This document shows, piece by piece, positions 3,603-58,250 of a stretch of 64,000 nt of DNA. The DNA comes from an uncultured Candidatus Saccharibacteria bacterium (lineage in GTDB: Bacteria; Patescibacteriota; Minisyncoccia; 1-14-0-10-42-19). Position numbers and translations under genes: made by a program. Every line of letters begins with the position of its first letter. The stretch's first letter is position 1. Below the pieces are notes generated by a model that worked only from the letters and a program-made list of their open reading frames with translations, did not search any database and was not told the DNA's origin. Where the stretch lies: contig CAYIFA010000001.1 of NCBI GenBank assembly GCA_964362625.1, forward strand, positions 2,994-66,993. The letters are read 5' to 3'.

Positions 3603-3623
3603 CTAAAAATTATAGCAAAATGA

Positions 3624-3650
3624 TGCGAGCCAGCTGAATGTCAGCTGGCT
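3624..3650 (-). terminator. Rho-independent terminator candidate
   Basis: A 10-bp perfect stem (gagccagctg / cagctggctc) with an aatgt loop, followed on the minus strand by a U-rich tract. Confidence 0.5.
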
Positions 3651-3659
3651 CTTAATACC

Positions 3660-3890
3660 TTATGAGGATGATCCTCTCCCCCTATAATAACTCTTCAGAT
3701 CACAGAAATACGCCGCGAGCTCTCCGAGAACCTCATCTCGGATCCTTGGCAATGCCGCCTCATTGATCGAAGCGCCACTCCTATTCCGAATTTCCGAACC
3801 GCTTATCCAGCGATCAAAAACTCGGTTGACTACTTCCTCTACTCCCGCTTCAATAGATGCACCGCCGCCACTGCTATCTATTACTCCCAT
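3660..3890 (-). CDS. Hypothetical small protein
   Basis: The ORF 3660..4025 overlaps the upstream dehydrogenase gene. Trimming to the internal Met (MGVIDSSGGG...) removes the overlap. No recognisable motif was found. Confidence 0.3.
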   Translation of the reverse strand: MGVIDSSGGGASIEAGVEEVVNRVFDRWISGSEIRNRSGASINEAALPRIRDEVLGELAAYFCDLKSYYRGRGSSS

Positions 3891-3960
3891 ATACTGCCCC
3901 CCTTTTAAAATCGATAATATTATAATACACCTTTTTATAAAAGTTGTCAACCGAGCTTGG

Positions 3961-4854
3961 TCAAGAAAATTTACGGAAATTCTGCTTTTTATTTTTAAGC
4001 CATTCCTGATCATGCATGCTGACATCTTCGGGAGTAAGCCCCTGTGTAGCTAAAATTGCTTCGTTGAATTTGCGATCGCGGTGGAATAAGGCGGCGGCTT
4101 CCGCAAGCCCGCAATTTTCGAGATGAGAAATTAAAGCGTCGGTGTCTTTTACGAAACAAAATCCGCCGTATCCGCGGTAACCACCGTGGTGTACATCAAG
4201 ATGCGAGTGTCCAATCCGTGAGTCAGCGCCAACTGCTTTACGAATATTCTCGAAATCGGCTTGATGGTACTTTGCTAAATCATAAACGGCATTAGCAAAG
4301 GTAATTTTTCTTGCCAAAAAGACATTCGCGGCATATTTTACGATTTCAGCTTCGGTCGCGCTCAAATTTAATGCGTTAGACGGCGACGCGAGCGGCGCTT
4401 TCGGCAAAAGCGATAAAACAATCGCGGCTGCCTCGCGACTGCCCAAAGTCCATCCAACCAATTGCCGCTCGGGCTTGATAAAATCCTGCCAAGCGGACTT
4501 TTCGGTGAGAAACTCCGGATTAAAAAATAGTTTGTGCTTTGGGTTAGCTTTTTGTAAACTTTCGGTAGTTCCGGGAGGTACAGTTGATTTTATAACCACA
4601 ATCTTAGAACCGCCTATTCCGGCTACTGCTTCCTCAACTATTGAAGTATCGGCAGAACCGTCTGCCCAACGCGGGCTTGGCACGCAAATGAAAATTACAT
4701 CGGCGCGATTAATATCGTCGGAAAATCGTTTGGCCGGATCTTTATCGTACAAAAACAAATTGCGCCCATGTTCATATGCCTTATCCTCGAACCATTTCTT
4801 AAGCGGCCCACCAACCATTCCGACCCCCACTATGCCGACTTTATATTTCATCAT
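3961..4854 (-). CDS. UDP-glucose/GDP-mannose dehydrogenase family protein, short form lacking the usual C-terminal nucleotide-sugar-binding domain
   Basis: An N-terminal Rossmann motif (KVGIVGVGMVGGPL) and the catalytic-Cys motif GGFCFVKD (compare GGSCFPKD in UGDH) are present. The start is trimmed to MMKYK. The protein is only about 297 aa. Confidence 0.65.
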   Translation of the reverse strand: MMKYKVGIVGVGMVGGPLKKWFEDKAYEHGRNLFLYDKDPAKRFSDDINRADVIFICVPSPRWADGSADTSIVEEAVAGIGGSKIVVIKSTVPPGTTESLQKANPKHKLFFNPEFLTEKSAWQDFIKPERQLVGWTLGSREAAAIVLSLLPKAPLASPSNALNLSATEAEIVKYAANVFLARKITFANAVYDLAKYHQADFENIRKAVGADSRIGHSHLDVHHGGYRGYGGFCFVKDTDALISHLENCGLAEAAALFHRDRKFNEAILATQGLTPEDVSMHDQEWLKNKKQNFRKFS

Positions 4855-6856: not shown

Positions 6857-7570
6857 CTAGATGTTTTTCAACGCGCGCTCGGCTAAAGACCAATCTTCCG
6901 GTTCATCAACATCAACGGCATATTTTGCATCTATTATATATGGCGCCACATGCTCACCGAAAAAATTAGGTTCGGTTTCATCAAATATAAAATGAGTTTT
7001 TAACAAATAAATGGAAGTATTATTCCAATATGCTTTTGGCACAGCTTGACGCGGAACGATTCTATTTCTTACCGGATTGCCGTTGAAAAGCTGGAGCCCG
7101 CCTTTTTCATTGACTACCATCGCGCGGTGCGGACTAAAATGAACCGGCATTTCCGAAATTCCCAGGACCGAATCAGCGCCGCTATTTAAAAATAATTCTA
7201 CTGCCTCCTTGATGTGAAAATCCTGACGCAATGGCGAAGTCGGTTGCAGAATCATTACCGCATCCGGCCCATAGTTTTCATTCTCTGCGAGCCACTTGAG
7301 CGCATGTTGAACCACCGGCATGGTTGGCGTATCGTCTTTGGCCAGTTCGGCCGGCCGCATAAACGGGACTTCACAGCCATTTTGCTTAGCAACTTTCGCA
7401 ATAGCCTCATCGTCAGTAGTTAAAATAATCCGGTCAAGTGAAGCGGATTTTTTCGCGGCCTCAATGGTATAAACAACAAGGGGCTTTCCGGAGAGTAATT
7501 TTATGTTTTTACCCGGGATACCTTTTGATCCACCGCGCGCAGTGATAATGCCCAAAATTTTAGGATTCAT
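6857..7570 (-). CDS. Acylneuraminate cytidylyltransferase (CMP-NulO synthetase) family, paralog 1
   Basis: It has the ITARGGSKGIPGKN N-terminal motif and the PTSPLR motif, both typical of CMP-NeuAc and CMP-KDO synthetases. Confidence 0.85.
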   Translation of the reverse strand: MNPKILGIITARGGSKGIPGKNIKLLSGKPLVVYTIEAAKKSASLDRIILTTDDEAIAKVAKQNGCEVPFMRPAELAKDDTPTMPVVQHALKWLAENENYGPDAVMILQPTSPLRQDFHIKEAVELFLNSGADSVLGISEMPVHFSPHRAMVVNEKGGLQLFNGNPVRNRIVPRQAVPKAYWNNTSIYLLKTHFIFDETEPNFFGEHVAPYIIDAKYAVDVDEPEDWSLAERALKNI

Positions 7571-8729
7571 GAAACACTTTTTGTGTATAAAGTGGAATTT
7601 TACTTAAAATTCTTACAATATTTTCGCTTGTATTTGGTTTAAAATAGCCTTTAAAGCCGGGATATTTGCCATGCCGAAGCTGATATTTGATGGCGTCCGC
7701 AATTTTGGCTGAACCGTAATCTCCATCCACGTCGATCACGCTTGGAGCGCGCAAACGTCCGGCCTGGCGGCTACCGATATTTACCGTCGGCACACCCAAA
7801 AATGACGCTTCTTTTATTCCGGATGAAGAATTGCCAACAACAATCGCAGCCTTTCTCAAAAGCGCCACAAAGTCATCCGGCAATAAATCAATCATAAATC
7901 TTATATTCACTCCGGTGTCTCCGGATTTTTGGTCGTGAATTTCGCGTAACCTACGGGACATATCGGCAGTCCCGGCATCAATATTTGGCCAAAACCATAC
8001 CGCTGACAATTTAGCTCTAACTAATGCGTCGTATATCGCTTCAACTCCCCGCACATGATCGGCTTCGCTGGTTACCGGGTGAAACATCACCAGCGCAAAA
8101 GGTTTTTCGATGTCAACATTACCGCCCACTCCGCGTAAATTAGCGTATTCGGAAGTAATTTTTTTATTGGAATTTTTTATAAATTCTAAATCCGGCGAAC
8201 CGACATTAAAAACCATTTTAGGATTTTCGCCCATTTGAATCACATGTCTACGAGCCGCGTCATTGGTTACAAAATGAATATGCGAAAGTTTGGTTATCGC
8301 ATGCCTGACGCTTTCGTCAATGCTTCCCGTAACATCGCCCCCTTCAATGTGCGCGATAGTTTTATTAAGGTATGCGGCAGACATGGCCAGCGCCAGTTGT
8401 TCAAATCTGTCACCATGAATCAAAACTATATCCGGATTTAACTTTTCAAAAATATTTGAGGTTTCCAGGGCGATCAAAGCGGCAGTTTTTGCCATAGCTG
8501 CATGGTTGCCGCCTTCAATAACATTTAATAAACGCTCTTTAATATTGAAATTGGCGGCCTCAACATCGGCAAGAGCCTTCTCGCCGTAGCGCTCCAGCAT
8601 TATCGAGCCGCCTAAAATAACCTGCGGTTCAATTCTTGGATTTTTATGCAGTCGGGTCAACAACAATTTTATCCGCGCGTAATATGAGCGGCTCAATATC
8701 GGAATGCAAATTTTTCTCTTTTCGGCCAT
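7560..8729 (-). CDS. neuC: UDP-N-acetylglucosamine 2-epimerase, NeuC-like (hydrolysing type)
   Basis: A 389-aa GT-B epimerase fold with an HIEGG motif and wecB/neuC family architecture. It is in an operon with the CMP-NulO synthetase and NeuB genes. Confidence 0.75.
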   Translation of the reverse strand: MAEKRKICIPILSRSYYARIKLLLTRLHKNPRIEPQVILGGSIMLERYGEKALADVEAANFNIKERLLNVIEGGNHAAMAKTAALIALETSNIFEKLNPDIVLIHGDRFEQLALAMSAAYLNKTIAHIEGGDVTGSIDESVRHAITKLSHIHFVTNDAARRHVIQMGENPKMVFNVGSPDLEFIKNSNKKITSEYANLRGVGGNVDIEKPFALVMFHPVTSEADHVRGVEAIYDALVRAKLSAVWFWPNIDAGTADMSRRLREIHDQKSGDTGVNIRFMIDLLPDDFVALLRKAAIVVGNSSSGIKEASFLGVPTVNIGSRQAGRLRAPSVIDVDGDYGSAKIADAIKYQLRHGKYPGFKGYFKPNTSENIVRILSKIPLYTQKVFHES

Positions 8730-8811
8730 AACTTGACAATATGATTATATTTCAGCGAAATCTTCGTTATTTTCGTTATAATTAACTTACAATAAAAAAA
8801 CGTGAACCGCA

Positions 8812-8846
8812 ATAAAGAAAAGGCGGCTTGTCTGCTCAAGCCGCCT
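8812..8846 (-). terminator. Rho-independent terminator
   Basis: A 9-bp stem (aggcggctt / aagccgcct) with an 8-nt loop. It is flanked on the plus strand by aaagaaaa, giving a U-tract on the minus strand. Confidence 0.65.
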
Positions 8847-8853
8847 CTAGTGT

Positions 8854-8893
8854 TAAACCTAGGAGGTTTAACTATTAGACCTCCGAGGTTTAA
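8854..8893. repeat. REP-like imperfect palindromic element, family 1, copy A
   Basis: ttaaacctaggaggtttaa-ctat-tagacctccgaggtttaa. It shares the 5' 8 nt and the 3' 18 nt with the copy at 16387..16427. It lies immediately 3' of a minus-strand gene stop and before a canonical terminator. Confidence 0.7.
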
Positions 8894-8900
8894 TATGTAT

Positions 8901-10085
8901 TTACTTTTTCGCGAACTCTCGCAGGGTGCTGACAATCGCGCGGAGCGCGACGCCTTTTTCTGTTGGTTTTGGATAAAGCTGTTCTTGCTTTACCCTAAGT
9001 TCGCGGCACAAGACATTTCTCTGTTCTAGCAAATCAATAACGCTGTTAGCGATATATTGCGGTTCACCGCCAACATAGGAGGTAACTCCTTCTTCGACCA
9101 ATTCCCACTTGCCGCCAGAAACGCCCTTGAGTCGGACGCTTGTGGTAACATTTAAAAGGCTGATGACCGGCTTACGCTGGCAGACGGCCTCGATTTCAGT
9201 AGTAGAGGCAGGACCTATCAGTAAATCGCAGCCGGGAATCAAATCGGAAATTGAAACCTCTTTTGCTGATATTACTCTCGCCGGAATAGCATTCCATTTC
9301 ATCAATTCTTGATAGGACTTAACTCTGGACATTTCTTCAAAAGCAGTAAAAGTTTTTTCAACTTCTTTTTCATCCAAAGCGCGATTATCAGCATCCCTAT
9401 GCTTCGCGGCGTAATCTTTAATAAAGTTCCGCATACCATCATCCATCTCGACACGATCCCCTGGATGTCGGCTGAAAACCAATTGCCACTTACGTCGCCC
9501 AGTGACCATCCAATCCAAGTTGAAGGCCTCTAAAACACTGCTCCACATCGGCATGGTGATCGCTGATGGCTTATGCCCGACAACCAAAACAAACGTCTCA
9601 TCCAGCCGAATCCCGAGCTTGGCTCGCGACTCTTCGTATGACAGTTTCGGGAAATAAAACTCATCCCACAGCGGATTGCCGGAAGAAATAACTTTTGCTT
9701 TTAGAAAAACTTTCCGCGCCTCTCTGGCTTCCTTTTCACTCAAAACAAAAACAAAACTGGCATCAGCGCGAACACTCTCAAACCAATTACGGTTATGCGC
9801 GCAACCAAAGGTGTCGGCATAAAGTCCGTAAGGAATCCTAGCTTCGCGGGCAGCCATACACGACACAATTTCTTCTCTGGCAGTGTTGGCATTAGCCGAC
9901 ATACCTACCAGTAAAACATCTGCTGACCTTACAGCGGCAACAATCTTATCGTCAAGTACTTCAAGAGCTTTTCCTCTACCCAAAACCGGTATTACGCCGA
10001 ACTTTCCGGTTTCCAACAGCGAATCCCTGACCCTTTCGAACGCCTGCGACGGCGCGATGTCCCTAGCCACCAGCACTGCTCTCAT
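8901..10085 (-). CDS. GT-B fold glycosyltransferase-like protein (TagF/PseG-like), function unknown
   Basis: A Rossmann-like N-terminal half and a C-terminal GT-B motif (GPASTTEIEAVCQRKPVISL) are present, together with VLVVGHKPS and SRHPGD motifs reminiscent of the TagF family. It sits at the head of the neuC operon. Confidence 0.4.
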   Translation of the reverse strand: MRAVLVARDIAPSQAFERVRDSLLETGKFGVIPVLGRGKALEVLDDKIVAAVRSADVLLVGMSANANTAREEIVSCMAAREARIPYGLYADTFGCAHNRNWFESVRADASFVFVLSEKEAREARKVFLKAKVISSGNPLWDEFYFPKLSYEESRAKLGIRLDETFVLVVGHKPSAITMPMWSSVLEAFNLDWMVTGRRKWQLVFSRHPGDRVEMDDGMRNFIKDYAAKHRDADNRALDEKEVEKTFTAFEEMSRVKSYQELMKWNAIPARVISAKEVSISDLIPGCDLLIGPASTTEIEAVCQRKPVISLLNVTTSVRLKGVSGGKWELVEEGVTSYVGGEPQYIANSVIDLLEQRNVLCRELRVKQEQLYPKPTEKGVALRAIVSTLREFAKK

Positions 10086-10131
10086 CAGCTAACTCTCCTT
10101 TTTGATTTTCAACTCCGCTAGTATTATACCC

Positions 10132-10187
10132 AAAACAAAAGCCCCGTCAAGATTTGGCGGGGCGCTTACACTTCGGAAGTGTAAAGT
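10132..10187 (-). terminator. Tandem hairpins 3' of the Gfo/Idh/MocA gene (stop-proximal palindrome plus rho-independent terminator)
   Basis: A 9-bp palindrome (cttacacttcggaagtgtaag) overlaps the stop codon. A gccccg...cggggc hairpin follows, with an aaaacaaaa run on the plus strand (U-run on minus). Confidence 0.55.
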
Positions 10188-11311
10188 TATCCATAGTAAG
10201 CTTTATTAAGGATTCTCATTACTTCTAAACCGGAGCGGTAAGACAAAGGCGACTCGCAAGGATTAGTTGCTTTAAGCAGTGAATCGTAATGCTGGACTTC
10301 GTAATAAAAATCATCTGGACGGGTTTTAGGGAAAATCTCAACAACCTTCCGATTTTCTGTTTCGTACTTAACAACATCACCAGCCGGGTCGCCATTACAA
10401 TGCCATTCGAGCCAACCTTTTGTCCCTTGAACCCGCGCCCACTTGCGCGGCGGTTTGGTAACGACGTCCTGAGTTACATGCCCCACTCTTCCTTTGTTCA
10501 TCTGCATTATAAAATGGGCAATCCGGTCATATTCCACACGCTGCGATCCGGCTAAATCACTTACTACATTCAATTTACGTACCAAGTCGCAAAGTCCATA
10601 GCTTTCACCCGGCCACCACCATGCCCATGAGGCCAATTTCAGAAACAAATGCAAAGCGTGAGAATGCTCGTTGCCCGCTCCTCCGCCGCGGCGCCAATAG
10701 CCCAGATAGCTATCCTGCAGCCCAGATAGCCACGGATGCGCTTTAAAAGCCCCTTCCCAGTGCTCACGAAATTCAACGTCAATGGTTAAGATCTCACCAA
10801 ACTCTCCGCCATCACCCTTTCTCTCTTCAATCCGATTTTCATTAAGAAGATCGGCAACACGACGAATGCTGTTCGAAACCGCGTGATTGTAACCAACTGT
10901 TACAATCGTATCCGGATACTTTTTCATTTCGGCTTCAAATTCGGCAACACCTGTGAGGTTCGGAGTGCAGAGTGGTTTTTCTAGGTGCAGGAGTCTTGGG
11001 TTTTTCTTGATTTCTTCAATCGCCAGCTTCATCCGCACATCCGGAGGAGTAGTGATCATGATGATATCGAATCTATCAGGAATCGCATCTCCAGTCCTGT
11101 AGTCCTCAAATTGCGATGCGCCGCCAACCCCATCTGACAAAAATAGCCCTATCGTAAGATCAACTATTTGATAGCGGTCACTATAAATCCGGCGAAAACG
11201 ATCCAAAGCGCGTACACTCGTATCTACCACGGAAACCCGCCAGCCCATCCTGCAACACGCTTGCGCCAAATGGATCCCGGCCGAACCAGCCCCGATGATT
11301 TTTACGTTCAC
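10187..11311 (-). CDS. Gfo/Idh/MocA family NAD(P)-dependent sugar oxidoreductase
   Basis: It has a Rossmann motif (MNVKIIGAGSAGIH) and the family EKP motif (LHLEKPLC). Confidence 0.75.
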   Translation of the reverse strand: MNVKIIGAGSAGIHLAQACCRMGWRVSVVDTSVRALDRFRRIYSDRYQIVDLTIGLFLSDGVGGASQFEDYRTGDAIPDRFDIIMITTPPDVRMKLAIEEIKKNPRLLHLEKPLCTPNLTGVAEFEAEMKKYPDTIVTVGYNHAVSNSIRRVADLLNENRIEERKGDGGEFGEILTIDVEFREHWEGAFKAHPWLSGLQDSYLGYWRRGGGAGNEHSHALHLFLKLASWAWWWPGESYGLCDLVRKLNVVSDLAGSQRVEYDRIAHFIMQMNKGRVGHVTQDVVTKPPRKWARVQGTKGWLEWHCNGDPAGDVVKYETENRKVVEIFPKTRPDDFYYEVQHYDSLLKATNPCESPLSYRSGLEVMRILNKAYYG

Positions 11312-11964
11312 TCGTCCGATTCCTTTCTAGTTATGATTTCGGGAACATCACGAACCGAATCAATCGTAACAAATTTTTCGTTTTTCGTCCAGTTAGTAAA
11401 ACCGCTCAATATTCCGATGAAAAAACAGCCATAAGCTTCGGCGGCTACGCGATCCGGTTCGCCATCTCCAACAAAGACGGTCTGATTGCCACCAACTTGT
11501 TCAAGAGCAAAAATCTTTTCAAGTGCGCTTTCCTTGGTCTCCGGTCGCCCAAAAATTTCGGCAAAAAACTTCCCTATCCCGAGATTGTCAACGCTTTCAC
11601 CCAACGCCTCAATGGGGGTGGAGGAATTTAAATAAAGTTTGTACTTTTTTGACAATTCCTCGAGCGCCTCCCAAACTCCGCCAATCAACCCTTTCCGTAA
11701 AATACCGGTTTGCGTAATTTGGTTATATTTTTCGGCGTGTGCCCGAATAAGCGTTATCCGCTCAGCATCTCGGCGCCCCAATGCCCTAAAGATCTCATCT
11801 AAAATTACATATCTGGTTCGGACCGCGACTTTCGGAAATAGTTCAAGCGCTACCTGCTTTTCATTCTCCGGCAAATCGCCAAAGACGTCGGACCAAGCCT
11901 CGTCTTTTATACGATTGGAATCAACCAGCACGCCGTCAAAATCAAATACTATGACCTTGAACAT
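11308..11964 (-). CDS. HAD-superfamily phosphatase, candidate NulO-9-phosphate phosphatase
   Basis: HAD motif I (VFDFDGVLVDS) and motif IV (GDGEPD) are present. It overlaps the upstream gene by 4 nt and lies between NeuB-family genes. Confidence 0.8.
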   Translation of the reverse strand: MFKVIVFDFDGVLVDSNRIKDEAWSDVFGDLPENEKQVALELFPKVAVRTRYVILDEIFRALGRRDAERITLIRAHAEKYNQITQTGILRKGLIGGVWEALEELSKKYKLYLNSSTPIEALGESVDNLGIGKFFAEIFGRPETKESALEKIFALEQVGGNQTVFVGDGEPDRVAAEAYGCFFIGILSGFTNWTKNEKFVTIDSVRDVPEIITRKESDE

Positions 11965-12023
11965 AAAACCCTCCGGTAAGCTGATGTTCTTTATCTAGCG
12001 AGATAATAATATTTCCCGAAACT

Positions 12024-13568
12024 TTAGTCAAACTGATGCCGGCCCCAGTTTAATAAATAGGTTTTCCTGAAATCCCGCGGGAGCTTTGAAATTGCTTTAT
12101 CGGCATAGTAAGAATCATCGGGATGATTGGTAGTAGAAATTTCTTCAAAAATAACCCCGGTGTCACTGCCGAAAGCATGCACTATGCCGCGCGGCACCCA
12201 CAATGAATCACCCGGTTCCAAAACTTTTTGCCGGTCGTCGATATCAACTTTCATAACCCCGCTTAAAACATGAAAAGTTTCATCTTTTTTCATGTGGTAG
12301 TGCGCCGGGTTATATTGACCGGCTAATTGCACAACAATTTTTTTGGCGTATTCGCGATTAAAACAAGTGATTAAAGTACAGCCGGCTTTATGAAAATTCT
12401 CTACTCCATAATGATGCGAGAGTTCCACTTGAAAATCATGGCCCAATGGAACTTTGGCCGTATTAAGCATGCCCTTTATCGAATGGATGGCGTGATAAAT
12501 TATTTCTTTTTTCTCCGGAACATCCGATCGAGTTATGCCCGCGATGGCCTCTTTCGGCAGATAATCCTTATCAGCCAACATCCCATCCCTCCACCGGCCG
12601 CTTACCAACTGGCCGCCTTGCAAAGGCATGGCAAAAAATACATCCGAGCGGTCAATGATTGTTCCGGCCTCAATCCGGCGTTTGGCGTAAACCCCACGCA
12701 TTAGGGACCTGAGGTCGCTTGCTTCTTCTTCAGAAATGCTTCGCTCACCAGCTTCATGCCCGCATGCCTTAACTGCTTCTTTATACGAGGCGACCCAAGC
12801 GTCCACTTGTTCGGGAGACGCTGAATAAGCGTTCAATTTTATGCCGTCAGCCGGGACTCCAACATGCTTTTCAAAAATCCGCGCGCCTTTAGCGTAAGCA
12901 AGACCGACGAGCGACGTATTTGATGGCTCTTCATGCGTTGAAAAGCCAATAGTCAATCCGGGATAACGGCTGCGTAAAATTCCAATCTGATTTAAATGCG
13001 CTTTATCGTTGGTCATCGGATAAATTGAAACACAGTGCATAAGCGCGAAGTGCACCGCGCGTTTTTGGAAAAAGCTAACGATTTTATCAATATCTTTGAC
13101 CGTAAGTCCGCCGGTTGAAATAATTACCGGCCTGCCGGTATCAGCAACCCGCTCCAACAACGGAAAATCTAGGGCTGAACAGCTGCCGATCTTTATTATC
13201 TCAATACCCAGGCGCATGATGCGGTCAACCGACAGTTCGTCAAACGGCGTGCACATCGAAATCAAGCCGAGTTTTTTTGTTTCGGCGACCAATTCGGCGA
13301 ATTGCTCCTCGCTCATCCGCGTAGATAAAAATCTCGGGATATGCTTAATATCTTTGGACTCGCGGAAATCCGGATGAATAAAAGTATCCAGATCTCGAAA
13401 CTGCAGTTTCACTGCCGCGCGAATATTGTGCCTAGAAGCAATATCGGCCATGGCATTAATAATGCGCTGGCCATGCTCTACCGAACCTTGGTGATTATTG
13501 GCCATTTCGAAGACAAATAGATTTTTGAAATCAAATTGTGGCATGGAAATATTGTAAGATAAGGGCAT
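12024..13568 (-). CDS. NeuB-family synthase, paralog 2, with SAF domain and an extra C-terminal cupin domain
   Basis: A NeuB-like TIM barrel (FVFEMANNHQGS) and a SAF region are present. The C-terminal 150 aa carry cupin motifs (NPAHYHMKKDETFHVLSG ... GDSLWVPRGIVHAF). Total length is 514 aa. Confidence 0.8.
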   Translation of the reverse strand: MPLSYNISMPQFDFKNLFVFEMANNHQGSVEHGQRIINAMADIASRHNIRAAVKLQFRDLDTFIHPDFRESKDIKHIPRFLSTRMSEEQFAELVAETKKLGLISMCTPFDELSVDRIMRLGIEIIKIGSCSALDFPLLERVADTGRPVIISTGGLTVKDIDKIVSFFQKRAVHFALMHCVSIYPMTNDKAHLNQIGILRSRYPGLTIGFSTHEEPSNTSLVGLAYAKGARIFEKHVGVPADGIKLNAYSASPEQVDAWVASYKEAVKACGHEAGERSISEEEASDLRSLMRGVYAKRRIEAGTIIDRSDVFFAMPLQGGQLVSGRWRDGMLADKDYLPKEAIAGITRSDVPEKKEIIYHAIHSIKGMLNTAKVPLGHDFQVELSHHYGVENFHKAGCTLITCFNREYAKKIVVQLAGQYNPAHYHMKKDETFHVLSGVMKVDIDDRQKVLEPGDSLWVPRGIVHAFGSDTGVIFEEISTTNHPDDSYYADKAISKLPRDFRKTYLLNWGRHQFD

Positions 13569-14302
13569 TAACTATGCAATCGCTTTTTCATTAGAATTTC
13601 CGCAACTTCAAAATCAAGAGTACTGTCAATGTTTATCGAATCCTCCGGATTCATAAAAAAATAGGCAACTTTTTCGCCGGAAGTAGATTTTAAATCGCGA
13701 ATTGTATTGAGCCGCATAACATCCATTGCTCCGGTATGGACATAAACTTTCGGGAGCATTTGGCGCGGGAGGTTATACGGCTCATCCATTTTGGTGATGG
13801 TTTTCGGTAAAAACGGCTCCATGATTGCCGAGCTCCCGATTGTTTGCCACATTTTATAAGGATGCTTGGGTGATTCGGTTATCGGCCGACAGGAATCGGC
13901 ATCAGGATTATTCAAAAGCTTTTGAATGCCCTGATCAATATGCGCCGCAGTCCTAAGCGGTGAGGTCGGCGGCAGGCGTAAAACAATATCTGGCTCGTAA
14001 TCTTCTTTCTTCTTTAAAAAATCAAGCGCGTGGTTTAAAAATTCTACGTCGGTCGCGAGATCGCCGGAGATTTCCGCAGGGCGCAAAAACGGGACTTCTC
14101 CTCCATATTTTTCGGCAACCTTTGCGATTTCTTCGCTATCGGTTGAAATAATAAGTCGCGTCAAAAGATTTGATTGCTTTGCAATTTCAATAGTCCAAGC
14201 AATCAATGGCTTACCGGCTAAATTTCGTATATTTTTCCCGGGCACGCCCTTGGATCCGCCGCGCGCGGGAATAATTCCTAAAATCTCCATTTTTTTCATC
14301 AA
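13568..14302 (-). CDS. Acylneuraminate cytidylyltransferase (CMP-NulO synthetase) family, paralog 2
   Basis: IPARGGSKGVPGKN and PPTSPLR motifs are present. It overlaps NeuB paralog 2 by 1 nt, which suggests translational coupling. Confidence 0.85.
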   Translation of the reverse strand: MMKKMEILGIIPARGGSKGVPGKNIRNLAGKPLIAWTIEIAKQSNLLTRLIISTDSEEIAKVAEKYGGEVPFLRPAEISGDLATDVEFLNHALDFLKKKEDYEPDIVLRLPPTSPLRTAAHIDQGIQKLLNNPDADSCRPITESPKHPYKMWQTIGSSAIMEPFLPKTITKMDEPYNLPRQMLPKVYVHTGAMDVMRLNTIRDLKSTSGEKVAYFFMNPEDSINIDSTLDFEVAEILMKKRLHS

Positions 14303-14363
14303 TTGAATATAAACATACTTTCATTAAAAGACAAGCCCCGGCGCTAACCGGGACTTTTGAAAA

Positions 14364-16310
14364 TTATTTATAGATGTCCGTTATCCTGTCGGCAATAGAC
14401 AGATAATCTAGCTTGTGATACTTGAGAACCTCGTCATTCAATCCGCAAGCCGGAATTTCCTCTAGGCCATAATTGACTACAATCGGCCCGCCAAGTCTAC
14501 CAAAAATTCCCGAAATATATTCGCCCTGACCGCCCTTAATATAATGGTTATCTAATGTAAAAACAATTTCGGCATGATCAAACGTATCGTTGATCCAATC
14601 AGCATCAATGCGATTTAGCCAAGGAATGTTGAATACTGATAAGCTGTAATCAGTAAGTTCCTGAACACGCTTCGCGGCCTTTACTGCTTCAGTAAGCATT
14701 AACGGACCGTAGGCAATGATGTAAGCAAAGGAGGAGCCATTGTCACCTTTATACACGCATACGCCTTGTCCAGGCCTTAGCTGATAGTCGGGAGGGAGCC
14801 CGTAAGGCAAGTCCAAAGGAACATTAACAAATCGGATATAAGTGCTGTCCGGATTATTTTCAACCGCCCAACGAATTGCCATTCGGGCTTCGGCTTCAGA
14901 GGACGGTTCAATTGCCGTAAGCCCGGGCATTGCCGACATACAGGCAATGTCGCGCACTGACTGATGCGAATGTCCGGGACCGCCCGGAATCAAACCGGCC
15001 AGTGTTCCGATATAAATAATCTTGGATTTTTCAGTAGCATTATTGTAAATCTGCTCATTGGCGCGCGGGGTAAGGAAGCAAGCAAACGAATGAACAATCG
15101 GTAGCATGCCTTGTCTGGCAATACCGCCGGCCATGCTAACCATATCCTGTTCGGCAATCCCGCATTCAACAAATCTTTCCGGATGGCTTTTTTTGAATTC
15201 GGCAATCCCACAATCTTTCACCAGATCGGCGTCCAAAACTACAATGTCTTTTCGGTCTTCGGCAATCTTCAAAAGTTCGTCGCCATAAGCCGAAACAAGA
15301 TTCTGGGCTTTAGGAGATGCGGAAACGCGCTTTGGCATATCGCATGTCTCAAATTCCAAAACTATATCGCCTTTGGTCGATGCCCAGATACCTATTTCGA
15401 GTTCTGCAAGCGCGGCGTAATAATCATTATCCGACGGCGCTCCAGCATGATACTTGTAATATTCTTCATCGGCCTTCGGCTCCATAAAAGAGACGCCTTT
15501 ACCTTTGATGGTGTGAGCGATAATTGCTGTTGGGCGTCCGGAAAAAAATTTTGATTCGCGGACTTCTTTCAGAATCGCCGCTAACGACCAGAAGTCGTGC
15601 CCGTCAACTTCAAAGGTATTCCAGCCAAATGCATTGAATTTTTTGGCGATATGGCCAATGTCGCTGACATTTTTAACAAAGGTATCGGATTGCATTTTGT
15701 TGCAATCAACTATGACCGTGATCTCGGTATACCGGTCATTAGCGGTTTTCCCTAGTGATTCCCAAATCTGGCCCTCTTGCAATTCGCCGTCTCCGGTCAA
15801 AACGTAAATCCTTCCTCGCGTCCCTTGCATTCTTCGCGCGTAAGCCATGCCCCGCGCTTTTGAAACGCCCATACCAAGTGATCCGGTATTGGTTGCGATG
15901 AACGGAGTGCCGACATCCGGATGACCGGGCAGGCCGCCGATGCGACGAAGTTTGTGAACAAACTCATACGGAATATGTTCTCTTCCGATTAAAACTGAAT
16001 ATAAACCGGGAACATCGTGGCCTTTTGAAGAAAAGAATACATCAGAATGTGGCGGATCAATTTTCAAGTCATGATCAAATTCTTGATTCGGCGAATTCAT
16101 CTCCCTTTCCCACAACCAAGTTACTATATCCATCGCGCTGAAACTCGTCCCGATATGACCGGAACCGGCTTCCTTGATCATAGAAAGGGTATTTAAGCGA
16201 TATATATCGGCCAGCACTCTCATTCGTGCAAACGCATCGCCCGTAACCCATGAGCGAACCTTCCTGATTTGCTCAAGCGGCACAAAATAGAGTTTTCCTT
16301 TTTCAAACAT
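14364..16310 (-). CDS. tkt: Transketolase (full-length, TPP-dependent)
   Basis: A GSGHIGTSFSAMD TPP motif, a GDGELQEGQIWE motif, a pyrimidine-binding domain and a C-terminal domain are present. Length is 648 aa. Confidence 0.85.
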   Translation of the reverse strand: MFEKGKLYFVPLEQIRKVRSWVTGDAFARMRVLADIYRLNTLSMIKEAGSGHIGTSFSAMDIVTWLWEREMNSPNQEFDHDLKIDPPHSDVFFSSKGHDVPGLYSVLIGREHIPYEFVHKLRRIGGLPGHPDVGTPFIATNTGSLGMGVSKARGMAYARRMQGTRGRIYVLTGDGELQEGQIWESLGKTANDRYTEITVIVDCNKMQSDTFVKNVSDIGHIAKKFNAFGWNTFEVDGHDFWSLAAILKEVRESKFFSGRPTAIIAHTIKGKGVSFMEPKADEEYYKYHAGAPSDNDYYAALAELEIGIWASTKGDIVLEFETCDMPKRVSASPKAQNLVSAYGDELLKIAEDRKDIVVLDADLVKDCGIAEFKKSHPERFVECGIAEQDMVSMAGGIARQGMLPIVHSFACFLTPRANEQIYNNATEKSKIIYIGTLAGLIPGGPGHSHQSVRDIACMSAMPGLTAIEPSSEAEARMAIRWAVENNPDSTYIRFVNVPLDLPYGLPPDYQLRPGQGVCVYKGDNGSSFAYIIAYGPLMLTEAVKAAKRVQELTDYSLSVFNIPWLNRIDADWINDTFDHAEIVFTLDNHYIKGGQGEYISGIFGRLGGPIVVNYGLEEIPACGLNDEVLKYHKLDYLSIADRITDIYK

Positions 16311-16341
16311 CTATGCCTCCTTGAAAGTTTCTTTACCCAAG

Positions 16342-16368
16342 AAAAAAGATAGCACTTATCGTGCTATC
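16342..16368 (-). terminator. Rho-independent terminator downstream of the SDR gene
   Basis: A perfect 8-bp stem (gatagcac-ttatc-gtgctatc) preceded on the plus strand by an A6 run. Confidence 0.7.
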
Positions 16369-16386
16369 TTGTCAATTCTTCCGGCA

Positions 16387-16427
16387 TTAAACCTCCCGGG
16401 TCTAATAGTTAGACCTCCGAGGTTTAA
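16387..16427. repeat. REP-like imperfect palindromic element, family 1, copy B
   Basis: ttaaacctcccgggtcta-atagt-tagacctccgaggtttaa. The arms are complementary at 15 of 18 positions plus a GU pair. It starts 4 nt after the stop of the minus-strand SDR gene. Confidence 0.7.
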
Positions 16428-16430
16428 CTT

Positions 16431-17345
16431 TTAGAGAGCGGTCCAGCCGCCGTCGACAACTAGGGTCGAGCCAGTCATGTAGCGGCTCGCTTCTGAAACC
16501 AAAAACAGGATTGCGCCGTTGTAATCATCCGAGTTAGCCATCCGCTTCAGCGGAGTCCGCTGCACGTATTCGGCGATAAAACGCGGATCTTGATTTTCTT
16601 TTACACCACCTGGCGCCAAAGTGTTTACCCGGATATTCAACCTATGGTAGCCGCAATAACCGGCAAGCCATCTGGTGAAATTCAGCACTCCGGATTTGGC
16701 AACGCTATACCCAACCGGTTTGTTGTAATCAATATCGCCATCAGCTCGGCGAAAATCATAAATTGACTGATCCGGACTAACTAATCCGTAAGTAGAAGAA
16801 ATATTTACGATTTTGGCCCACTTGTCTTTGGCAATTTTCCCTGACTCGCGAGCAGACCGAAAATTCCTGATAAACTCCTGGCTCACCAAAAACATTCCGG
16901 TCAGATGAGAATCCAGAACTGCGTGCCAAGTTTCTTCGGAATAATTTTCAAACAGGCCATTATCCGATGCCGGCGCGTCAGGACGAGAATCCATGCCGGC
17001 ATTATTGATAAGAATTGTAGGAGTACCGCGTTCCGCTTCCTCCATCCATTTAAAAAAACCTTGAATTTCTTTTCTATTGGTAATGTCGCACGTCCAAGCT
17101 TGTCCCGCCATCCAATGACCGAGCCCGCACATTTCGCGAGCCAACTTCGCTACGTCATCGGCAAAATGATCCTTAAGGTCTAAAGCGACTACATTTGCCC
17201 CGGCTTTCATGAGCGTCATAACATACTGACTCCCCAATAAGCCCATCCCGCCAGTTACAATCGCAACTTCGCCGTCCAAGTTAAACAATTTGTCAAAAAA
17301 CGCATGCTGTATATCATTCCGGCTCTCGGGCCATTCATTGCGCAT
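16431..17345 (-). CDS. SDR-family oxidoreductase (classical short-chain dehydrogenase)
   Basis: It has the motif VAIVTGGMGLLG, the motif NNAG, and the catalytic motif YSVAK (YxxxK). Confidence 0.8.
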   Translation of the reverse strand: MRNEWPESRNDIQHAFFDKLFNLDGEVAIVTGGMGLLGSQYVMTLMKAGANVVALDLKDHFADDVAKLAREMCGLGHWMAGQAWTCDITNRKEIQGFFKWMEEAERGTPTILINNAGMDSRPDAPASDNGLFENYSEETWHAVLDSHLTGMFLVSQEFIRNFRSARESGKIAKDKWAKIVNISSTYGLVSPDQSIYDFRRADGDIDYNKPVGYSVAKSGVLNFTRWLAGYCGYHRLNIRVNTLAPGGVKENQDPRFIAEYVQRTPLKRMANSDDYNGAILFLVSEASRYMTGSTLVVDGGWTAL

Positions 17346-42262: not shown

Positions 42263-42495
42263 GTTGGGCTATATATAACCAATAAAAATTATTTTATGTC
42301 ATTTTGAACTCGTTATCAACTCCGAATTGTGGATAATGTTAAAGCCGCCATCCAATGACAAAATGAACATGCCGATGTTATCGCACCACTCTCTATGCAA
42401 TATCCGATATTGCACAACATTGATAGAGCCACTGCGGTTTGTTTTCGCACAAAAAGCGGCCTGTGTTAAGCCGCTTTCGTTTTAATAGACGGAGT

Positions 42496-42594
42496 TTATC
42501 CGGCATAATACTCGCGCCAGTATTCGAGAAGGTCCGAAAGGGTTTGCTCAAACGGAATTGTCGGCTGCCAGCCGGTTTGATTGAAAAACTTCAT
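42496..42594 (-). pseudogene. 3' remnant of a GDP-mannose 4,6-dehydratase gene (duplicate of the 3' end of gmd at 43823..44803)
   Basis: About 135 nt (42466..42597) are roughly 95% identical to 43792..43923. The reverse strand encodes MKFFNQTGWQPTIPFEQTLSDLLEYWREYYAG followed by a stop, the same as the Gmd C-terminus. It is followed by part of the same terminator hairpin. Confidence 0.6.
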
Positions 42595-43775: not shown

Positions 43776-43812
43776 AAAAACGGCTTATTTGGTTAAGCCG
43801 CTTTCATTTTAA
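43776..43812 (-). terminator. Rho-independent terminator downstream of gmd
   Basis: aaaaaa precedes a stem (cggctta-tttggt-taagccg) followed by ctttcatttt. Its 3' half is included in the duplicated segment at 42466..42484. Confidence 0.6.
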
Positions 43813-43822
43813 AATACAAGTT

Positions 43823-44803
43823 TTATCCGGCATAATACTCGCGCCAGTATTCGAGAAGGTCCGAAAGGGTTTGCTCAAACGGAATTGTCGGCTGCCAGCC
43901 GGTTTGATTAAAAAACTTCTCGGAGGATGGAATCTGCATTGAAACATCTGATGGACGTAATCTTTTTGGATCGACTTCGACCCGAATATCATTTCTTAAA
44001 GACAACGCCAAAAGCTTACCCAACATATCGCCGACAGTCATCGTAACATTGCCGCCGATGTTATAAACTTCGCCGGCTTCGCATTTTTCGGTCAAGACCC
44101 AGTAAGCCCGGACTGCATCGCGGACATCCATGAAAGTTCTGACGCTTCTAAGGTTGCCGACTTTCACAATGGGCTCTTCTTGCAAACCGGCTTCAATCGC
44201 CGCTATCTGCTTGGCAAAGGATGATTCCACAAAAACCTCGCCGCGGCGCGGACCGGTATGAGTAAACATCCTGGAGCGTATAGTTTTAATCTCCCAGCTG
44301 GTCCAATACTGAAAAGCCAGCATGTCTTCGGCCACCTTGCTTACGGCGTAAGGAGAGGCCGGACGAAACGGGTTTTCTTCGGTAATGGGGATTTCGTCTT
44401 CGCGCACCTGACCGTACACTTCCGAGCTGCTGCAAACATGAACAATCGGATCATAATCCGAAGACTGTTTAACGCCCTTGATTACCTCAAGCAAATTACA
44501 GGTTCCGATGACGTTTACGTCGAGAGTTGCCGTGGGATAGATAAAGCTAGCATCAACGTAAGATTGAGCGGCCAAATGAAATATTTTTTTAGGCCGCCAA
44601 GTATCGAGCACCCTTTTTAGTGAACCGGGGTCCGTTAGGTCGCCGTATTCTAATGTCAAAGAATTAAGAATATGCCGGATGTTATTTTTAGGAGAACGCC
44701 AGCGCACAAGCCCAATAATTTTAACTTCCGGATTATGCGCTACAATATAATCCGCCAGATGACTGCCGACGAATCCGGTAATGCCGGTAATTAGCACATT
44801 CAC
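43823..44803 (-). CDS. gmd: GDP-mannose 4,6-dehydratase
   Basis: It has the Rossmann motif ITGITGFVGSHL, a catalytic YxxxK (YAVSKVAED), and the Gmd-type motif RMFTHTGPRRGEVFV. Confidence 0.85.
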   Translation of the reverse strand: MNVLITGITGFVGSHLADYIVAHNPEVKIIGLVRWRSPKNNIRHILNSLTLEYGDLTDPGSLKRVLDTWRPKKIFHLAAQSYVDASFIYPTATLDVNVIGTCNLLEVIKGVKQSSDYDPIVHVCSSSEVYGQVREDEIPITEENPFRPASPYAVSKVAEDMLAFQYWTSWEIKTIRSRMFTHTGPRRGEVFVESSFAKQIAAIEAGLQEEPIVKVGNLRSVRTFMDVRDAVRAYWVLTEKCEAGEVYNIGGNVTMTVGDMLGKLLALSLRNDIRVEVDPKRLRPSDVSMQIPSSEKFFNQTGWQPTIPFEQTLSDLLEYWREYYAG

Positions 44804-47480: not shown

Positions 47481-47516
47481 ATAAATAACCGTTCCGGTAT
47501 TACCGGAACGGTTTTT
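47481..47516. terminator. Bidirectional terminator between convergent genes; repeat family 2, copy 1
   Basis: A perfect 11-bp stem (aaccgttccgg-tatt-accggaacggt) followed by ttttt, with an ataaataa run on the 5' side. Confidence 0.7.
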
Positions 47517-47533
47517 CTAATCTCATTAGCAGT

Positions 47534-48520
47534 TTAGCCATCACGAAAGGCATCATAACGATGGCCAAGCTTGTCGCGGTTCCCTTTATACCACAAAACC
47601 GTATCGCCTATTCCAAACTCCAAAGAAATTGTCGGATGAAATCCATAACTTTTGGCGCGGGTCGTATCAAGAACTCTTCGACGGTCACCTCGTTCGCCTG
47701 CAGATTTCTCAGCATTCCATTTTATCTCCGGCTTAACTTCCAAATTATCAACTATTAGCCGAACCAACTCGCGAATTGTGGCGCCCTTACCGCTGCCGAG
47801 GTTAATCGGCTGATATATTTCGTTTTCGGCTGTAAAAAGCATGCCGCGCGCCACGTCTAAAGCATTTATGAAATCGCGCTCGGAGGTTCCATCGCCACGA
47901 ACTTGCAGAGGGTTTTCTCCATCTACCGCCCGTCTAATTAAAGACGGAACCACCATCGCGCTCTCCGCGTCAAATGCATCATAGCGCCCATAAGCATTAG
48001 CCGGACGGACTATAGAAACTTTCCAGCCATATTCAATGGCAAAAGCTTCTGCCTGCAGTTCGCCCATGCGCTTGGCCCAGCCGGCAAATTTATCATTCTC
48101 CGATGGATTCGCTTTCCACAAATCATCTTCAACCAAAAGTGGTGCCGGATGATATGCGCCGTAAGTGCTCGTGTATAAATACCCTTTTACCTTGCGTCTT
48201 CGCGCCGCTTCCATCAAATTGGTATTGAATTGCAGATGAGTAGTAAACATGGTCGCCGGCTTAGTTTTAGCCATAACCGGCGAACCCTTTACCCCCAGCA
48301 GATTAAAAACATAATCAACGCCGCCGCATGCCATCATACAATTATCAAAATGGCGTAAATCAGCGCAGATAAAATGCACACGCTTATTTGCTGTCTGCGG
48401 TCTATCCAGCGAAGCAACTTGGACAAAAGCGCCGCGCGTAAGCAGCATATCGACTAGCGGTCTGCCGATCATACCGGTGCCGCCGGCAACCAGAACTACT
48501 TTACCGTCGAAGTTATACAT
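47534..48520 (-). CDS. NAD-dependent epimerase/dehydratase (Fcl-like), paralog
   Basis: VLVAGGTGMIG and VRPANAYGRYDAF motifs are present. The start is trimmed to MYNFDGK to remove a 58-aa spurious extension. Confidence 0.75.
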   Translation of the reverse strand: MYNFDGKVVLVAGGTGMIGRPLVDMLLTRGAFVQVASLDRPQTANKRVHFICADLRHFDNCMMACGGVDYVFNLLGVKGSPVMAKTKPATMFTTHLQFNTNLMEAARRRKVKGYLYTSTYGAYHPAPLLVEDDLWKANPSENDKFAGWAKRMGELQAEAFAIEYGWKVSIVRPANAYGRYDAFDAESAMVVPSLIRRAVDGENPLQVRGDGTSERDFINALDVARGMLFTAENEIYQPINLGSGKGATIRELVRLIVDNLEVKPEIKWNAEKSAGERGDRRRVLDTTRAKSYGFHPTISLEFGIGDTVLWYKGNRDKLGHRYDAFRDG

Positions 48521-48542
48521 GCCCACCTCCTCTTGGTTTTTA

Positions 48543-49268
48543 TCAGTAGATGAGCGGCCGAAGTTCAATGGCTTCGCGCTTAGCATTTTTGCCAGACCAA
48601 AATGCGACTCCCTTATTGATATATGAAACCGAGAAAAGCGGACGCGAACGAGTCGGCGATAAATTCGGATGCGAACCATGCACCAAATCACCATGCAATA
48701 CGAGCATACTGCCTTTCTTGAAAATCAAATCAATCCTGGGGTATTTCCCATACCGCATGGAATCGCGTATCACCTTGCCGGGATTTGCTCCGGGCGCTTC
48801 ATGGAAGCTGATAGTTGGCCGGGCATCCAGTAGTCCTTCTTTATGAGAACCGGCGTAAACATACAAACTGCCATTTTCGCGATTAGCATCCTCCAAAAAA
48901 ATGTTGATGGTGATATACGCGCCATGTTCAGCTTTAGGATAGGCGTTATCTTGATGCGGATTCCAAGCTTGCATCGCGTATTTGCTTCCGGCTTTTTTAA
49001 AGAGCACTTGGCTCATCAGAGCGACAACCTCGCGTCCCTGCAATTCCTCAAGGATAGTAACCACCCACCACTTACGCATAATACTCCGTACTGACTCCGA
49101 CTCACGGTCTAAATTCATAATCGCCGAAAAATCCGCATCCGCATGATTTTCGATCTCAGCTTTAATCGCATCGCACTCTTCCGGCTGATAGATATTATCA
49201 ACGATCAAATAACCAAAACGGTGATAAAAAGCAGTATCTACTTCATATAAGACTTTTAGCTTTTCCAC
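48543..49268 (-). CDS. Phytanoyl-CoA dioxygenase (PhyH)-family Fe(II)/2-oxoglutarate oxygenase
   Basis: An HxD motif (NPHQDNAY), a YAGSHKEG (GSH) motif and a distal His (LHGDLVHGS) are present. Confidence 0.7.
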   Translation of the reverse strand: MEKLKVLYEVDTAFYHRFGYLIVDNIYQPEECDAIKAEIENHADADFSAIMNLDRESESVRSIMRKWWVVTILEELQGREVVALMSQVLFKKAGSKYAMQAWNPHQDNAYPKAEHGAYITINIFLEDANRENGSLYVYAGSHKEGLLDARPTISFHEAPGANPGKVIRDSMRYGKYPRIDLIFKKGSMLVLHGDLVHGSHPNLSPTRSRPLFSVSYINKGVAFWSGKNAKREAIELRPLIY

Positions 49269-49340
49269 ATTAACCCCTCTTTCGTATATATGCTTTTACA
49301 ATTCTTCACGAATACTACTCCGAACAAAAATGTTAGTCAA

Positions 49341-49385
49341 GTTAAAAAAACCGTTCCGGAAGCACCGGAACGGTTATCTAATCTC
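49341..49385 (-). terminator. Rho-independent terminator; repeat family 2, copy 2
   Basis: aaaaaaa precedes the same 11-bp stem (accgttccgg-aagc-accggaacggt). It shares the 3' flank tctaatctc with copy 1. Confidence 0.65.
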
Positions 49386-49395
49386 GCTTGCGTGT

Positions 49396-51949: not shown

Positions 51950-51978
51950 TATGTCAACCAAGCTCAGCTTGGTTAACC
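51950..51978. repeat. Palindromic repeat, family 3, copy 1 (tgtcaaccaagctcagcttggttaacc)
   Basis: It overlaps the stop codon of the DJ-1/PfpI gene. It shares 22 of 24 nt with the copy at 58191..58216. Confidence 0.55.
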
Positions 51979-52479
51979 AAAAAACCTCAATGTATCACGC
52001 ATCCAATCTCCCAAATATTTATAATGCGGGCTGGTTATGATTTTACCGTCAACTACCGACGGAACGTCAACGTAAGTCGCGCCAGCGTTTTCGATGTCGT
52101 CCTTAATGCTGTAATAGCCGGAGATTTTTTTGCCTTTAACGATACGCGCTGAAATTAAAAGCTGCGCGGCATGGCAAATACTGGCGATCGGCTTATCCGC
52201 GTCATGAAAATCTTTTATGAATTTTATCGCCTCCTGGTCCTGTCTCAAATACTCCATACACTTTGCCCCACCAGGCAAAACCAGCAAATCATAGTCCTCC
52301 CCCCTAAGACCTGCTATATCCTTAGTTGGCACTACTTTTGTGCCGAGAATCCCTTGCACTTCAACATTGCCGCGGACTGCCACATCAACCTTAAACCCCG
52401 CCTCTTGCAGACGGTAATATGGATAAATAAATTCGTGATCCTGAACAAATTTTCCGGTTAAAATTAATGCCCTATTCAT
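51973..52479 (-). CDS. DJ-1/PfpI-family protein
   Basis: A nucleophile-elbow SICHAAQLL motif is present. Length is 168 aa. Confidence 0.75.
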   Translation of the reverse strand: MNRALILTGKFVQDHEFIYPYYRLQEAGFKVDVAVRGNVEVQGILGTKVVPTKDIAGLRGEDYDLLVLPGGAKCMEYLRQDQEAIKFIKDFHDADKPIASICHAAQLLISARIVKGKKISGYYSIKDDIENAGATYVDVPSVVDGKIITSPHYKYLGDWMRDTLRFFG

Positions 52480-58190: not shown

Positions 58191-58250
58191 GTGTCAACCA
58201 GGCTCAGCTTGGCCAATAATTAAATCCCGAGATATTATCTCGGGATTTTT
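58191..58250. repeat. Palindromic repeat, family 3, copy 2 (gtcaaccaggctcagcttggccaa), followed by an 11-bp perfect hairpin
   Basis: Copy 2 lies next to the hairpin atcccgagata-tt-atctcgggat plus a ttttt tract. Confidence 0.55.

Follow-up and report, generated by a model that had tools for sequence, protein, structure and literature searches.

A 19-nucleotide dyad unit recurring between stop codons and terminators in a Saccharibacteria sugar gene cluster, tentatively read as a REP-like hairpin

What is a short palindrome that recurs between the stop codons and the terminators of a gene cluster, and what keeps its two arms matched? We addressed this question in a stretch of 64,000 nucleotides from an uncultured Candidatus Saccharibacteria bacterium (NCBI GenBank assembly GCA_964362625.1, contig CAYIFA010000001.1, positions 2,994 to 66,993), which we call the window and whose own coordinates are used throughout. 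The palindrome appears there as two 41-nt doublets, copy A at 8853–8893 and copy B at 16387–16427, and as a related single unit at 10166–10184, all read in the sense of minus-strand genes. The feature is genuine and not due to chance, and it goes beyond a duplication with two copies. We tentatively interpret its building block as a lineage-specific, locally copied hairpin unit of 3′ untranslated regions (UTRs) that resembles repetitive extragenic palindromic (REP) elements, a reading to which we give somewhat less than an even chance.

The two doublets share the 18-mer TAGACCTCCGAGGTTTAA, with exact matches at 8876–8893 and 16410–16427, and none of 100 shuffled windows contained any match to it at three or fewer mismatches. 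Each doublet is composed of two 19-nt dyad units and a 3-nt linker, the unit consensus being TTARACCY, three free bases and RGGTYTAA. Four matches to TTARACC-N5-GGTYTAA are found in the 64 kb, all of them inside copies A and B, each of which has its unit starts at a spacing of exactly 22 bp. The stop-proximal unit reads TTAAACCTCGGAGGTCTAA on the minus strand in copy A (8875–8893) and again in copy B (16409–16427), and the same unit is present in L099 and L100, two of the relatives, contigs that for the copy A site were reached through homologs of the flanking genes. The second unit varies, the terminator-proximal unit of copy A reading TTAAACCTCCTAGGTTTAA (8853–8871, minus strand; linker 8872–8874) and its counterpart in copy B TTAGACCCGGGAGGTTTAA (16387–16405, minus strand; linker 16406–16408).

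Because the arms are all dyads of one half-site, any arm can pair with any other, and because each unit is itself a dyad, direct and inverted orientations of the units in a doublet are indistinguishable. Copies A and B are identical at 33 of 41 positions in direct alignment and at 36 of 41 when one is inverted; we considered copy B as an inverted copy of A on these values and dropped the idea, as at three sites (A, B and L100/L099) it is the invariant unit that lies nearer the stop codon when read along the mRNA. On the plus strand the arms of copy A pair through 17 Watson–Crick positions, one G–T and one mismatch over 19 positions, and those of copy B through 16 Watson–Crick positions, one G–T and two mismatches, counts read from the letters that agree with the predicted folds. 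An earlier inspection of the letters alone, hereafter the sequence-only reading, had described the variable arm as compensatory. That description fails: the five differences between the variable units of A and B all fall on one side of the hairpin, and two of the five break a pair. The same reading had named an absence of further copies in the genome, with A and B stemming from a single local duplication with flanking homology, as the outcome that would speak against it; homology between A and B does not extend beyond 43 nt, and related units occur at one more site in the window and in relatives.

This additional site carries a single unit of a second type (10166–10184, minus strand; sense TTACACTTCCGAAGTGTAA), a perfect 8+3+8 dyad that begins 2 nt past the stop codon (10187–10189) of an oxidoreductase gene. 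It is identical to the invariant unit at 15 of 19 positions, and the four differences form two symmetric, pair-preserving pairs (positions 4/16 and 7/13). Written for the whole family, the unit has two complementary 8-nt arms, the first of pattern TTAnACnT, on either side of a free 3-nt centre. Shine–Dalgarno and anti-Shine–Dalgarno content, stressed by the sequence-only reading, does not define the element, since TTACACTTCCGAAGTGTAA has the same architecture and placement and contains neither GGAGG nor CCTCC. Two relatives share the second type, L090 with one unit that bears a further compensatory change and L091 with two. The units in L091 (1205–1320) sit inside a longer inverted repeat (TATCCACAA...TTGTGGATA), behind which come tandem copies of AAGTGTAGGTGGAG; second-type units have evidently multiplied locally there.

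What these loci share most strictly is their distance to the stop codon, along with a placement ahead of a terminator that is separate from them. The five units of the window, like the units in relatives, are intergenic and begin 0–7 nt past a stop codon, upstream of the terminator, which bears out both the positional bias that had been proposed for checking and the original description of a repeated hairpin-forming palindrome adjoining minus-strand stops. Copy A lies 7 nt behind the TAA (8901–8903) of a minus-strand gene for a 394-aa protein (8901–10085) whose C-terminus is conserved among homologs, and is followed after 4 nt by a minus-strand intrinsic terminator (8848–8819) kept in all relatives. 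Copy B lies 3 nt behind the TAA (16431–16433) of a minus-strand short-chain dehydrogenase gene (16431–17345), with a minus-strand intrinsic terminator 16 nt further on (16370–16346) that is conserved in L092, L095 and L097. Behind the single unit the predicted fold contains a hairpin and U-tract on the same strand (10132–10163), which the terminator scan did not flag, its loop apparently exceeding the scan's 8-nt limit. No U-tract follows the element on the minus strand, so the element is not itself an intrinsic terminator. The three loci, with their five units and three adjoining genes, fall within 7.6 kb of the window (8.85–16.43 kb), a proximity that by our own calculation three random points would show with a chance of about 4%, and copies are missing from most gene ends in the window.

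Terminators in this cluster overlap conserved promoter-like sites, both in the window (16346–16375 and 10123–10163) and in the relatives L092, L095, L097 and L100. In one arrangement TTGACA lies just 5′ of the terminator stem, whose 3′ half doubles as the −10 hexamer (TTGACA, 17–18 nt, TATCTT), as in the conserved minus-strand site over the copy B terminator (16375–16346; 18-nt spacer). The other places TTGACG within the terminator loop and TATAAT after the U-tract, as in the minus-strand site over the hairpin behind the single unit (10150–10123; 16-nt spacer). By our own estimate, unit centres stand at about −57/−79, −61 and −86/−108 from the −35 hexamers, distances that are inconsistent among loci.

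Relatives reveal how the copy A site has changed. In the intergenic region between the gene for the 394-aa protein and a UDP-GlcNAc 2-epimerase gene, the terminator is always kept and the stretch from stop codon to terminator is variable, with singlet, 1.5-unit and doublet states in different lineages. L100 and L099, from one sample and of a related Parcubacteria lineage, have TAG followed directly by TTAAACCTCGGAGGTCTAA, then CAG, the half-unit TTAGACCT and an unrelated small hairpin. Their full unit matches the stop-proximal units of both A and B at 19 of 19 positions, against 55% identity to the window in the surrounding intergenic DNA and 77% in coding DNA. The invariant arm of the sequence-only reading is thereby upheld across diverged flanks, at a length of 19 nt rather than 18. 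L101, L102 and L103, from three samples, carry one unit, TTAAACCTAGGAGGTCTCA, 3 nt past the stop codon. L090 contains a diverged doublet, ACAGAACCT-CCC-AGGTTCTGT followed by TAGAACCT-AGG-AGGTTGCA, in which the double palindrome is kept though three of four half-sites have changed in concert, and neither L091 nor L092 has a unit at this site. Comparison of L101, L102 and L103 with window positions 7560–10085 further shows 90% DNA identity in the epimerase gene and only 48% identity in the adjacent 394-aa protein, which places a recombination breakpoint within the copy A intergenic region or beside it. In L100 and L099, position 3952–3981 of the former equals position 1–30 of the latter, so that two contigs of the same sample end and start in a shared 30 nt covering the invariant unit; a strain variant or second copy in that sample may cause the assembly graph to branch there.

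At the copy B site, five relatives have a conserved 79-aa open reading frame (ORF) after the dehydrogenase gene; the dehydrogenase is 69–94% identical in four of them, and L092 holds only the 3′ end of the gene. This 78–79-aa ORF (L092 348–584; L095 1335–1574; L097 3062–3301; L094 1828–1965; L096 from about 10947) contains the motif KK(I/A)VYWQWE, has no Pfam match and lies between the dehydrogenase gene and a transketolase-like gene. A terminator homologous to that of the window follows it wherever the contig extends far enough (L092, L095 and L097), and in a sixth relative the two large genes abut. In the window this small ORF has given way to copy B, which is therefore a recent, datable gain in the window lineage and not an old conserved structure. 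An alignment of the copy B 3′ flank with the end of the lost ORF was ambiguous, and we placed no weight on homology there.

Across ten distinct units, 92.5% of arm cells pair in a unit-level dyad and five of eight pairs have changed on both sides, values that none of 500 shuffles reached; the ten units are related sequences, and the independent change events are fewer, about six by our count. At the level of the whole doublet, copies A and B and the L090 doublet support a long-hairpin model (84% of cells paired, four pairs with double changes) and a two-small-hairpins model (90% paired, three double changes) about equally. Judged from these alignments, the dyad symmetry is clearly maintained under constraint. 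This constraint, where the sequence-only reading had argued for selection on the hairpin, shows in the comparison of the ten units and not in that of A with B. The doublets are predicted to fold stably in the sense strand, at −18.2 kcal/mol for copy A, −20.7 for copy B and −21.4 for the L090 doublet, with z-scores of −4.5 to −5.1 and none of 200 shuffles as stable; the minimum-energy fold of all three is one long interrupted hairpin of about 19 bp. Variation among copies has a pattern of its own, as centre triplets and linker recur as reverse complements between copies (CTA/TAG, AGG/CCT, GGG/CCC), and the variable units match the reverse complement of the invariant unit at 16–17 of 19 positions and each other at 14 of 19. 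This pattern fits hairpin-mediated flips or fold-back copying. Hairpin-associated small inversions occur in non-coding DNA of chloroplast intergenic regions, and the element resembles them in having centres or loops that are exact reverse complements between copies with arms unchanged. Such inversions are a mutational pattern rather than a functional class, and would explain the variation among copies, not their conservation.

Stop-codon placement, the predicted folds, dyad symmetry, the invariance of the stop-proximal unit and the coexistence of singlet and doublet states together lead us to favor the REP-like reading. In this interpretation the units would form a lineage-specific family in the 3′ UTRs of genes in a sugar-biosynthesis cluster of nonulosonic-acid type, upstream of the genes' own terminators. 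They would be transcribed as a stem-loop in the mRNA, the terminating ribosome would have to melt the doublet hairpin, and the re-formed hairpin could act as a barrier to 3′-to-5′ exonucleases, as a damper on expression of the upstream gene, or as both, its working mode most likely being that of Escherichia coli REP elements. The family would have grown by copying, from a single unit to a doublet at the first site and then to a new doublet, copy B, that replaced the small ORF; the copying route could have been local duplication, gene conversion or an unseen transposase.

The closest known kind of element is the proteobacterial REP element or, for the doublets, the REPIN, a hairpin-forming REP doublet (PMC3116915). 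Both are mobilized by RAYT transposases; the likeness does not establish membership in the REP/RAYT family. In PMC5082802, which cites Liang, Rudd and Deutscher (2015), E. coli REP elements are summarized as exonuclease barriers, as acting in transcription termination, and as causing ribosome stalling if they lie no more than 15 nt from a stop codon. The units described here fall in the same 15-nt range, in which E. coli REPs affect translation (PMC3116915; PMC5082802). As with REPs and REPINs, the elements are short (about 20–40 nt) extragenic imperfect palindromes able to form a hairpin, they occur singly or as doublets that fold as a single extended hairpin, their place is the 3′ UTR, behind the stop codon and ahead of the terminator, and copies are homogeneous within a lineage, the related lineage L090 having a concerted variant. 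Unlike REPs and REPINs, they are seen at three loci of a 64-kb window clustered in 7.6 kb, lack a conserved GTAG-like head (CATA, AAAG and ATAG precede the invariant unit in A, B and L099), and have much shorter units (19 nt, 41-nt doublet, 3-nt spacer) that are each fully dyad-symmetric and hence ambiguous in orientation. They also differ from proteobacterial REPs in their host, a Patescibacterium with a reduced genome, and in the absence of a RAYT (Y1 HUH transposase) domain from the 59 window ORFs that were scanned.

Several observations weigh against this interpretation. When both strands are folded, as had been proposed, the antisense does as well as the sense or better, copy A reaching −25.7 kcal/mol. 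The invariant unit alone reaches only −1.9 kcal/mol in sense (z −0.16) and −5.4 in antisense, and the L101 singlet also folds at −1.9; as single units are weak RNA hairpins, RNA structure alone does not explain conservation. Arm positions A5, C6 and T8, with their mirror positions, are invariant or nearly so among units, which suggests sequence-specific recognition rather than pure structure, and on this alignment a sequence-specific component is present beyond what RNA stability explains. The clustering of the three loci gives the family a local rather than a dispersed look, and no transposase gene was found among the 59 scanned ORFs that might have spread it. Searches for further copies point the same way: a strict two-unit pattern had no match in 185,579 species-representative genomes, a looser pattern of unit plus half-site had none in viral contigs and recovered only the copy A locus and unrelated sequences from the JGI metagenome collection, and a covariance model of the known copies, run with filters off on the window, turned up no other, nor did the model detect any in 1.4 Mb of related loci.

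Other searches were also negative. Neither synteny nor any unit was found at 80 UvrA loci of related Parcubacteria (1.3 Mb), and phage and plasmid collections contained no match. The metagenome matches L005, L007, L008 and L009 share only the 7-nt half-site, in unrelated contexts and partly within ORFs, and we set them aside as chance or unrelated; L008 (2060–2180) and L005 (1920–2010) contain arrays of TTAGACC...GGTCTAA palindromes, in L008 with a 22-nt period inside an ORF, which are probably unrelated to the window element. A known Rfam RNA was rejected, as the window has no match at gathering thresholds; the best sub-threshold match, suhB/mmgR, scored 23.4 bits against a threshold of 41, and copy B had none. 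The half-site TTARACC occurs 26 times on both strands where about 22 are expected and is not enriched outside the elements, on which we rejected a DNA uptake sequence. As a locus has two units at the most, the linkers measure 3 nt and the window has no Cas or Tas genes, the element is not a CRISPR or TIGR array, and at 41 nt, with no integrase in the window and a syntenic six-gene module between the copies, it is not an integron attC site (57–141 nt, R″-L″/L′-R′ boxes).

Invariant arm positions and weak single-unit hairpins are also what one would expect if the units were double-stranded DNA operators for a dimeric protein, with a strong site in the invariant unit and a weaker one 22 bp, or two helical turns, away; such a protein would regulate the promoter past the terminator or block read-through. 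We regard this as unlikely, while ranking it above the other alternatives. The 19-bp dyad with its variable 3-nt centre and invariant half-site core (A5, C6, T8), the pairing of two sites exactly 22 bp apart in both copies, the invariance of the unit in L099 far above its flanks and the promoter-like sites that follow each locus are all features shared with, or expected of, operators of dimeric factors. Yet the units lie upstream of a terminator that separates them from the downstream promoter, and they keep a tight distance to the stop codon and an inconsistent one to the −35 hexamers; from these distances, inconsistent by our reading, we rejected a class I activator site. A Pfam scan covering 59 of the 61 called ORFs of the window detected no gene for a DNA-binding protein, and no regulator gene lies nearby. 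Positions outside the core change symmetrically, which base pairing predicts and protein binding at non-contacted positions does not, and copy B is a recent arrival that replaced a gene. Quite unlikely in our view is a neutral origin, in which palindromes are made and homogenized by fold-back or template-switch duplication and inter-arm repair at a recombination-prone spot. The reverse-complement centres and linker, as hairpin-mediated flips would give, and the greater similarity of the variable units to the reverse complement of the invariant unit than to each other are consistent with such a process, as are the patchy presence at the copy A site (no unit in L091 or L092) and the mosaic junction in L101, with 90% DNA identity on one side and 48% protein identity on the other. 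Neutrality does not account for an invariant unit identical at 19 of 19 positions across lineages whose flanks are 55–77% identical, for the same stop-codon placement at three different genes, or for a second unit type conserved with the same geometry in three lineages.

We consider it very unlikely that the 19-nt dyad is recognized by a sequence-specific protein, whether a single-strand transposase, a recombinase or an RNA- or DNA-binding protein, and marks junctions where modules of the large sugar-biosynthesis island are swapped, deleted or copied among lineages of Parcubacteria; if it did, it would be a cassette-boundary signal in bacteria with very small genomes. Highly improbable is the related proposal that the units are recombination sites or module-boundary markers through which a recombinase or single-strand transposase promotes module exchange. 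The doublets and the single unit do sit at junctions of changing gene content or divergence (the small ORF present or absent, 48% versus 90% identity in L101), two doublets flank a six-gene module, and the SRR22388005 assembly breaks exactly at a unit, with the 30-nt overlap of L100 and L099. Against this, the Pfam scan detected no recombinase or transposase gene, the six-gene module is contiguous with its neighbors in L092 and L098 without any unit, and gene orientation is the same in all contigs, observations on which we rejected inverted repeats bounding an invertible or mobile module as well. Usual recombinase core sites are also longer than 8-nt arms with a 3-nt centre. Least probable of the explanations weighed is that the units terminate antisense, plus-strand transcription back to back with the sense terminators. 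The plus-strand hairpins are as stable as the sense ones or more so, both for copy A and for the invariant unit alone (−5.4 versus −1.9 kcal/mol), and T-rich runs follow on the plus strand, reading TATGTATTTACTTTTT behind copy A, CTTTTAG behind copy B and, in L100, CTATTTTTT; these runs are mostly the complement of conserved lysine codons and the stop codon, the terminator scan did not flag the sites, no plus-strand promoter or gene needing termination is evident, and the unit at 10166–10184 is followed on the plus strand by AGTTATCC, which has no T-run.

If the REP-like reading is right, the emergence and spread of small hairpin repeats extends to Patescibacteria and their reduced genomes, for which our literature search turned up no report of REP-like repeats. 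The repeats stand at module boundaries of a highly variable cell-surface sugar island and could offer a handle on operon punctuation, in which a stop codon is followed by the hairpin and then by a terminator that overlaps the next promoter, as well as on module loss and exchange. The feature is modest and local, and would be an extra example of a familiar class of bacterial element that opens no new question. Most of the window is a large sugar-modification island with a few housekeeping genes interspersed, and includes three NeuB-family genes, cytidylyltransferases, many epimerases and dehydratases, and radical SAM enzymes; the scanned ORFs include no transcription factor. Groundwater contigs from the Hainich (0.1-µm filter fraction of well H51) carry the same genes, one homologous protein fragment in NCBI is labeled Patescibacteria group bacterium, and the UvrA protein is 77% identical to that of a Candidatus Niyogibacteria genome and 70% identical to those of Giovannonibacteria genomes.

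The window contains other repeats and structures outside the loci described above. A second repeated palindrome, CCAAGCTGAGC(T/C)TGG, is present in two intergenic regions at 51952–51995 and 58192–58235, where it directly adjoins a TTGACA hexamer on the minus strand and looks like a dyad abutting a −35 box. Near-identical hairpins AACCGTTCCGG...CCGGAACGGTT at 47482–47535 and 49327–49380 flank an epimerase-family gene (47534–48694) and a 701-nt stretch (48695–49395) in which the ORF caller found no ORF of at least 90 aa. A direct repeat of 128 nt, whose copies are 94% identical and separated by 1.3 kb (42465–42592 and 43792–43919), has one copy overlapping the 3′ end of a dehydratase-like gene (43823–44803) and the other in a 351-nt non-coding gap, which suggests that the latter is a leftover gene fragment. 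In the 358-nt intergenic region at 3603–3960 the predicted fold is very stable (−115.7 kcal/mol), and no Rfam family matches the region. A long A+T-rich hairpin (1666–1742, −32 kcal/mol) with ATGAAT/ATTCAT-like repeats lies between NusB–NUDIX and RNase III genes, and the 296-aa ORF at 1743–2633 joins NusB and NUDIX hydrolase domains in an unusual fusion.

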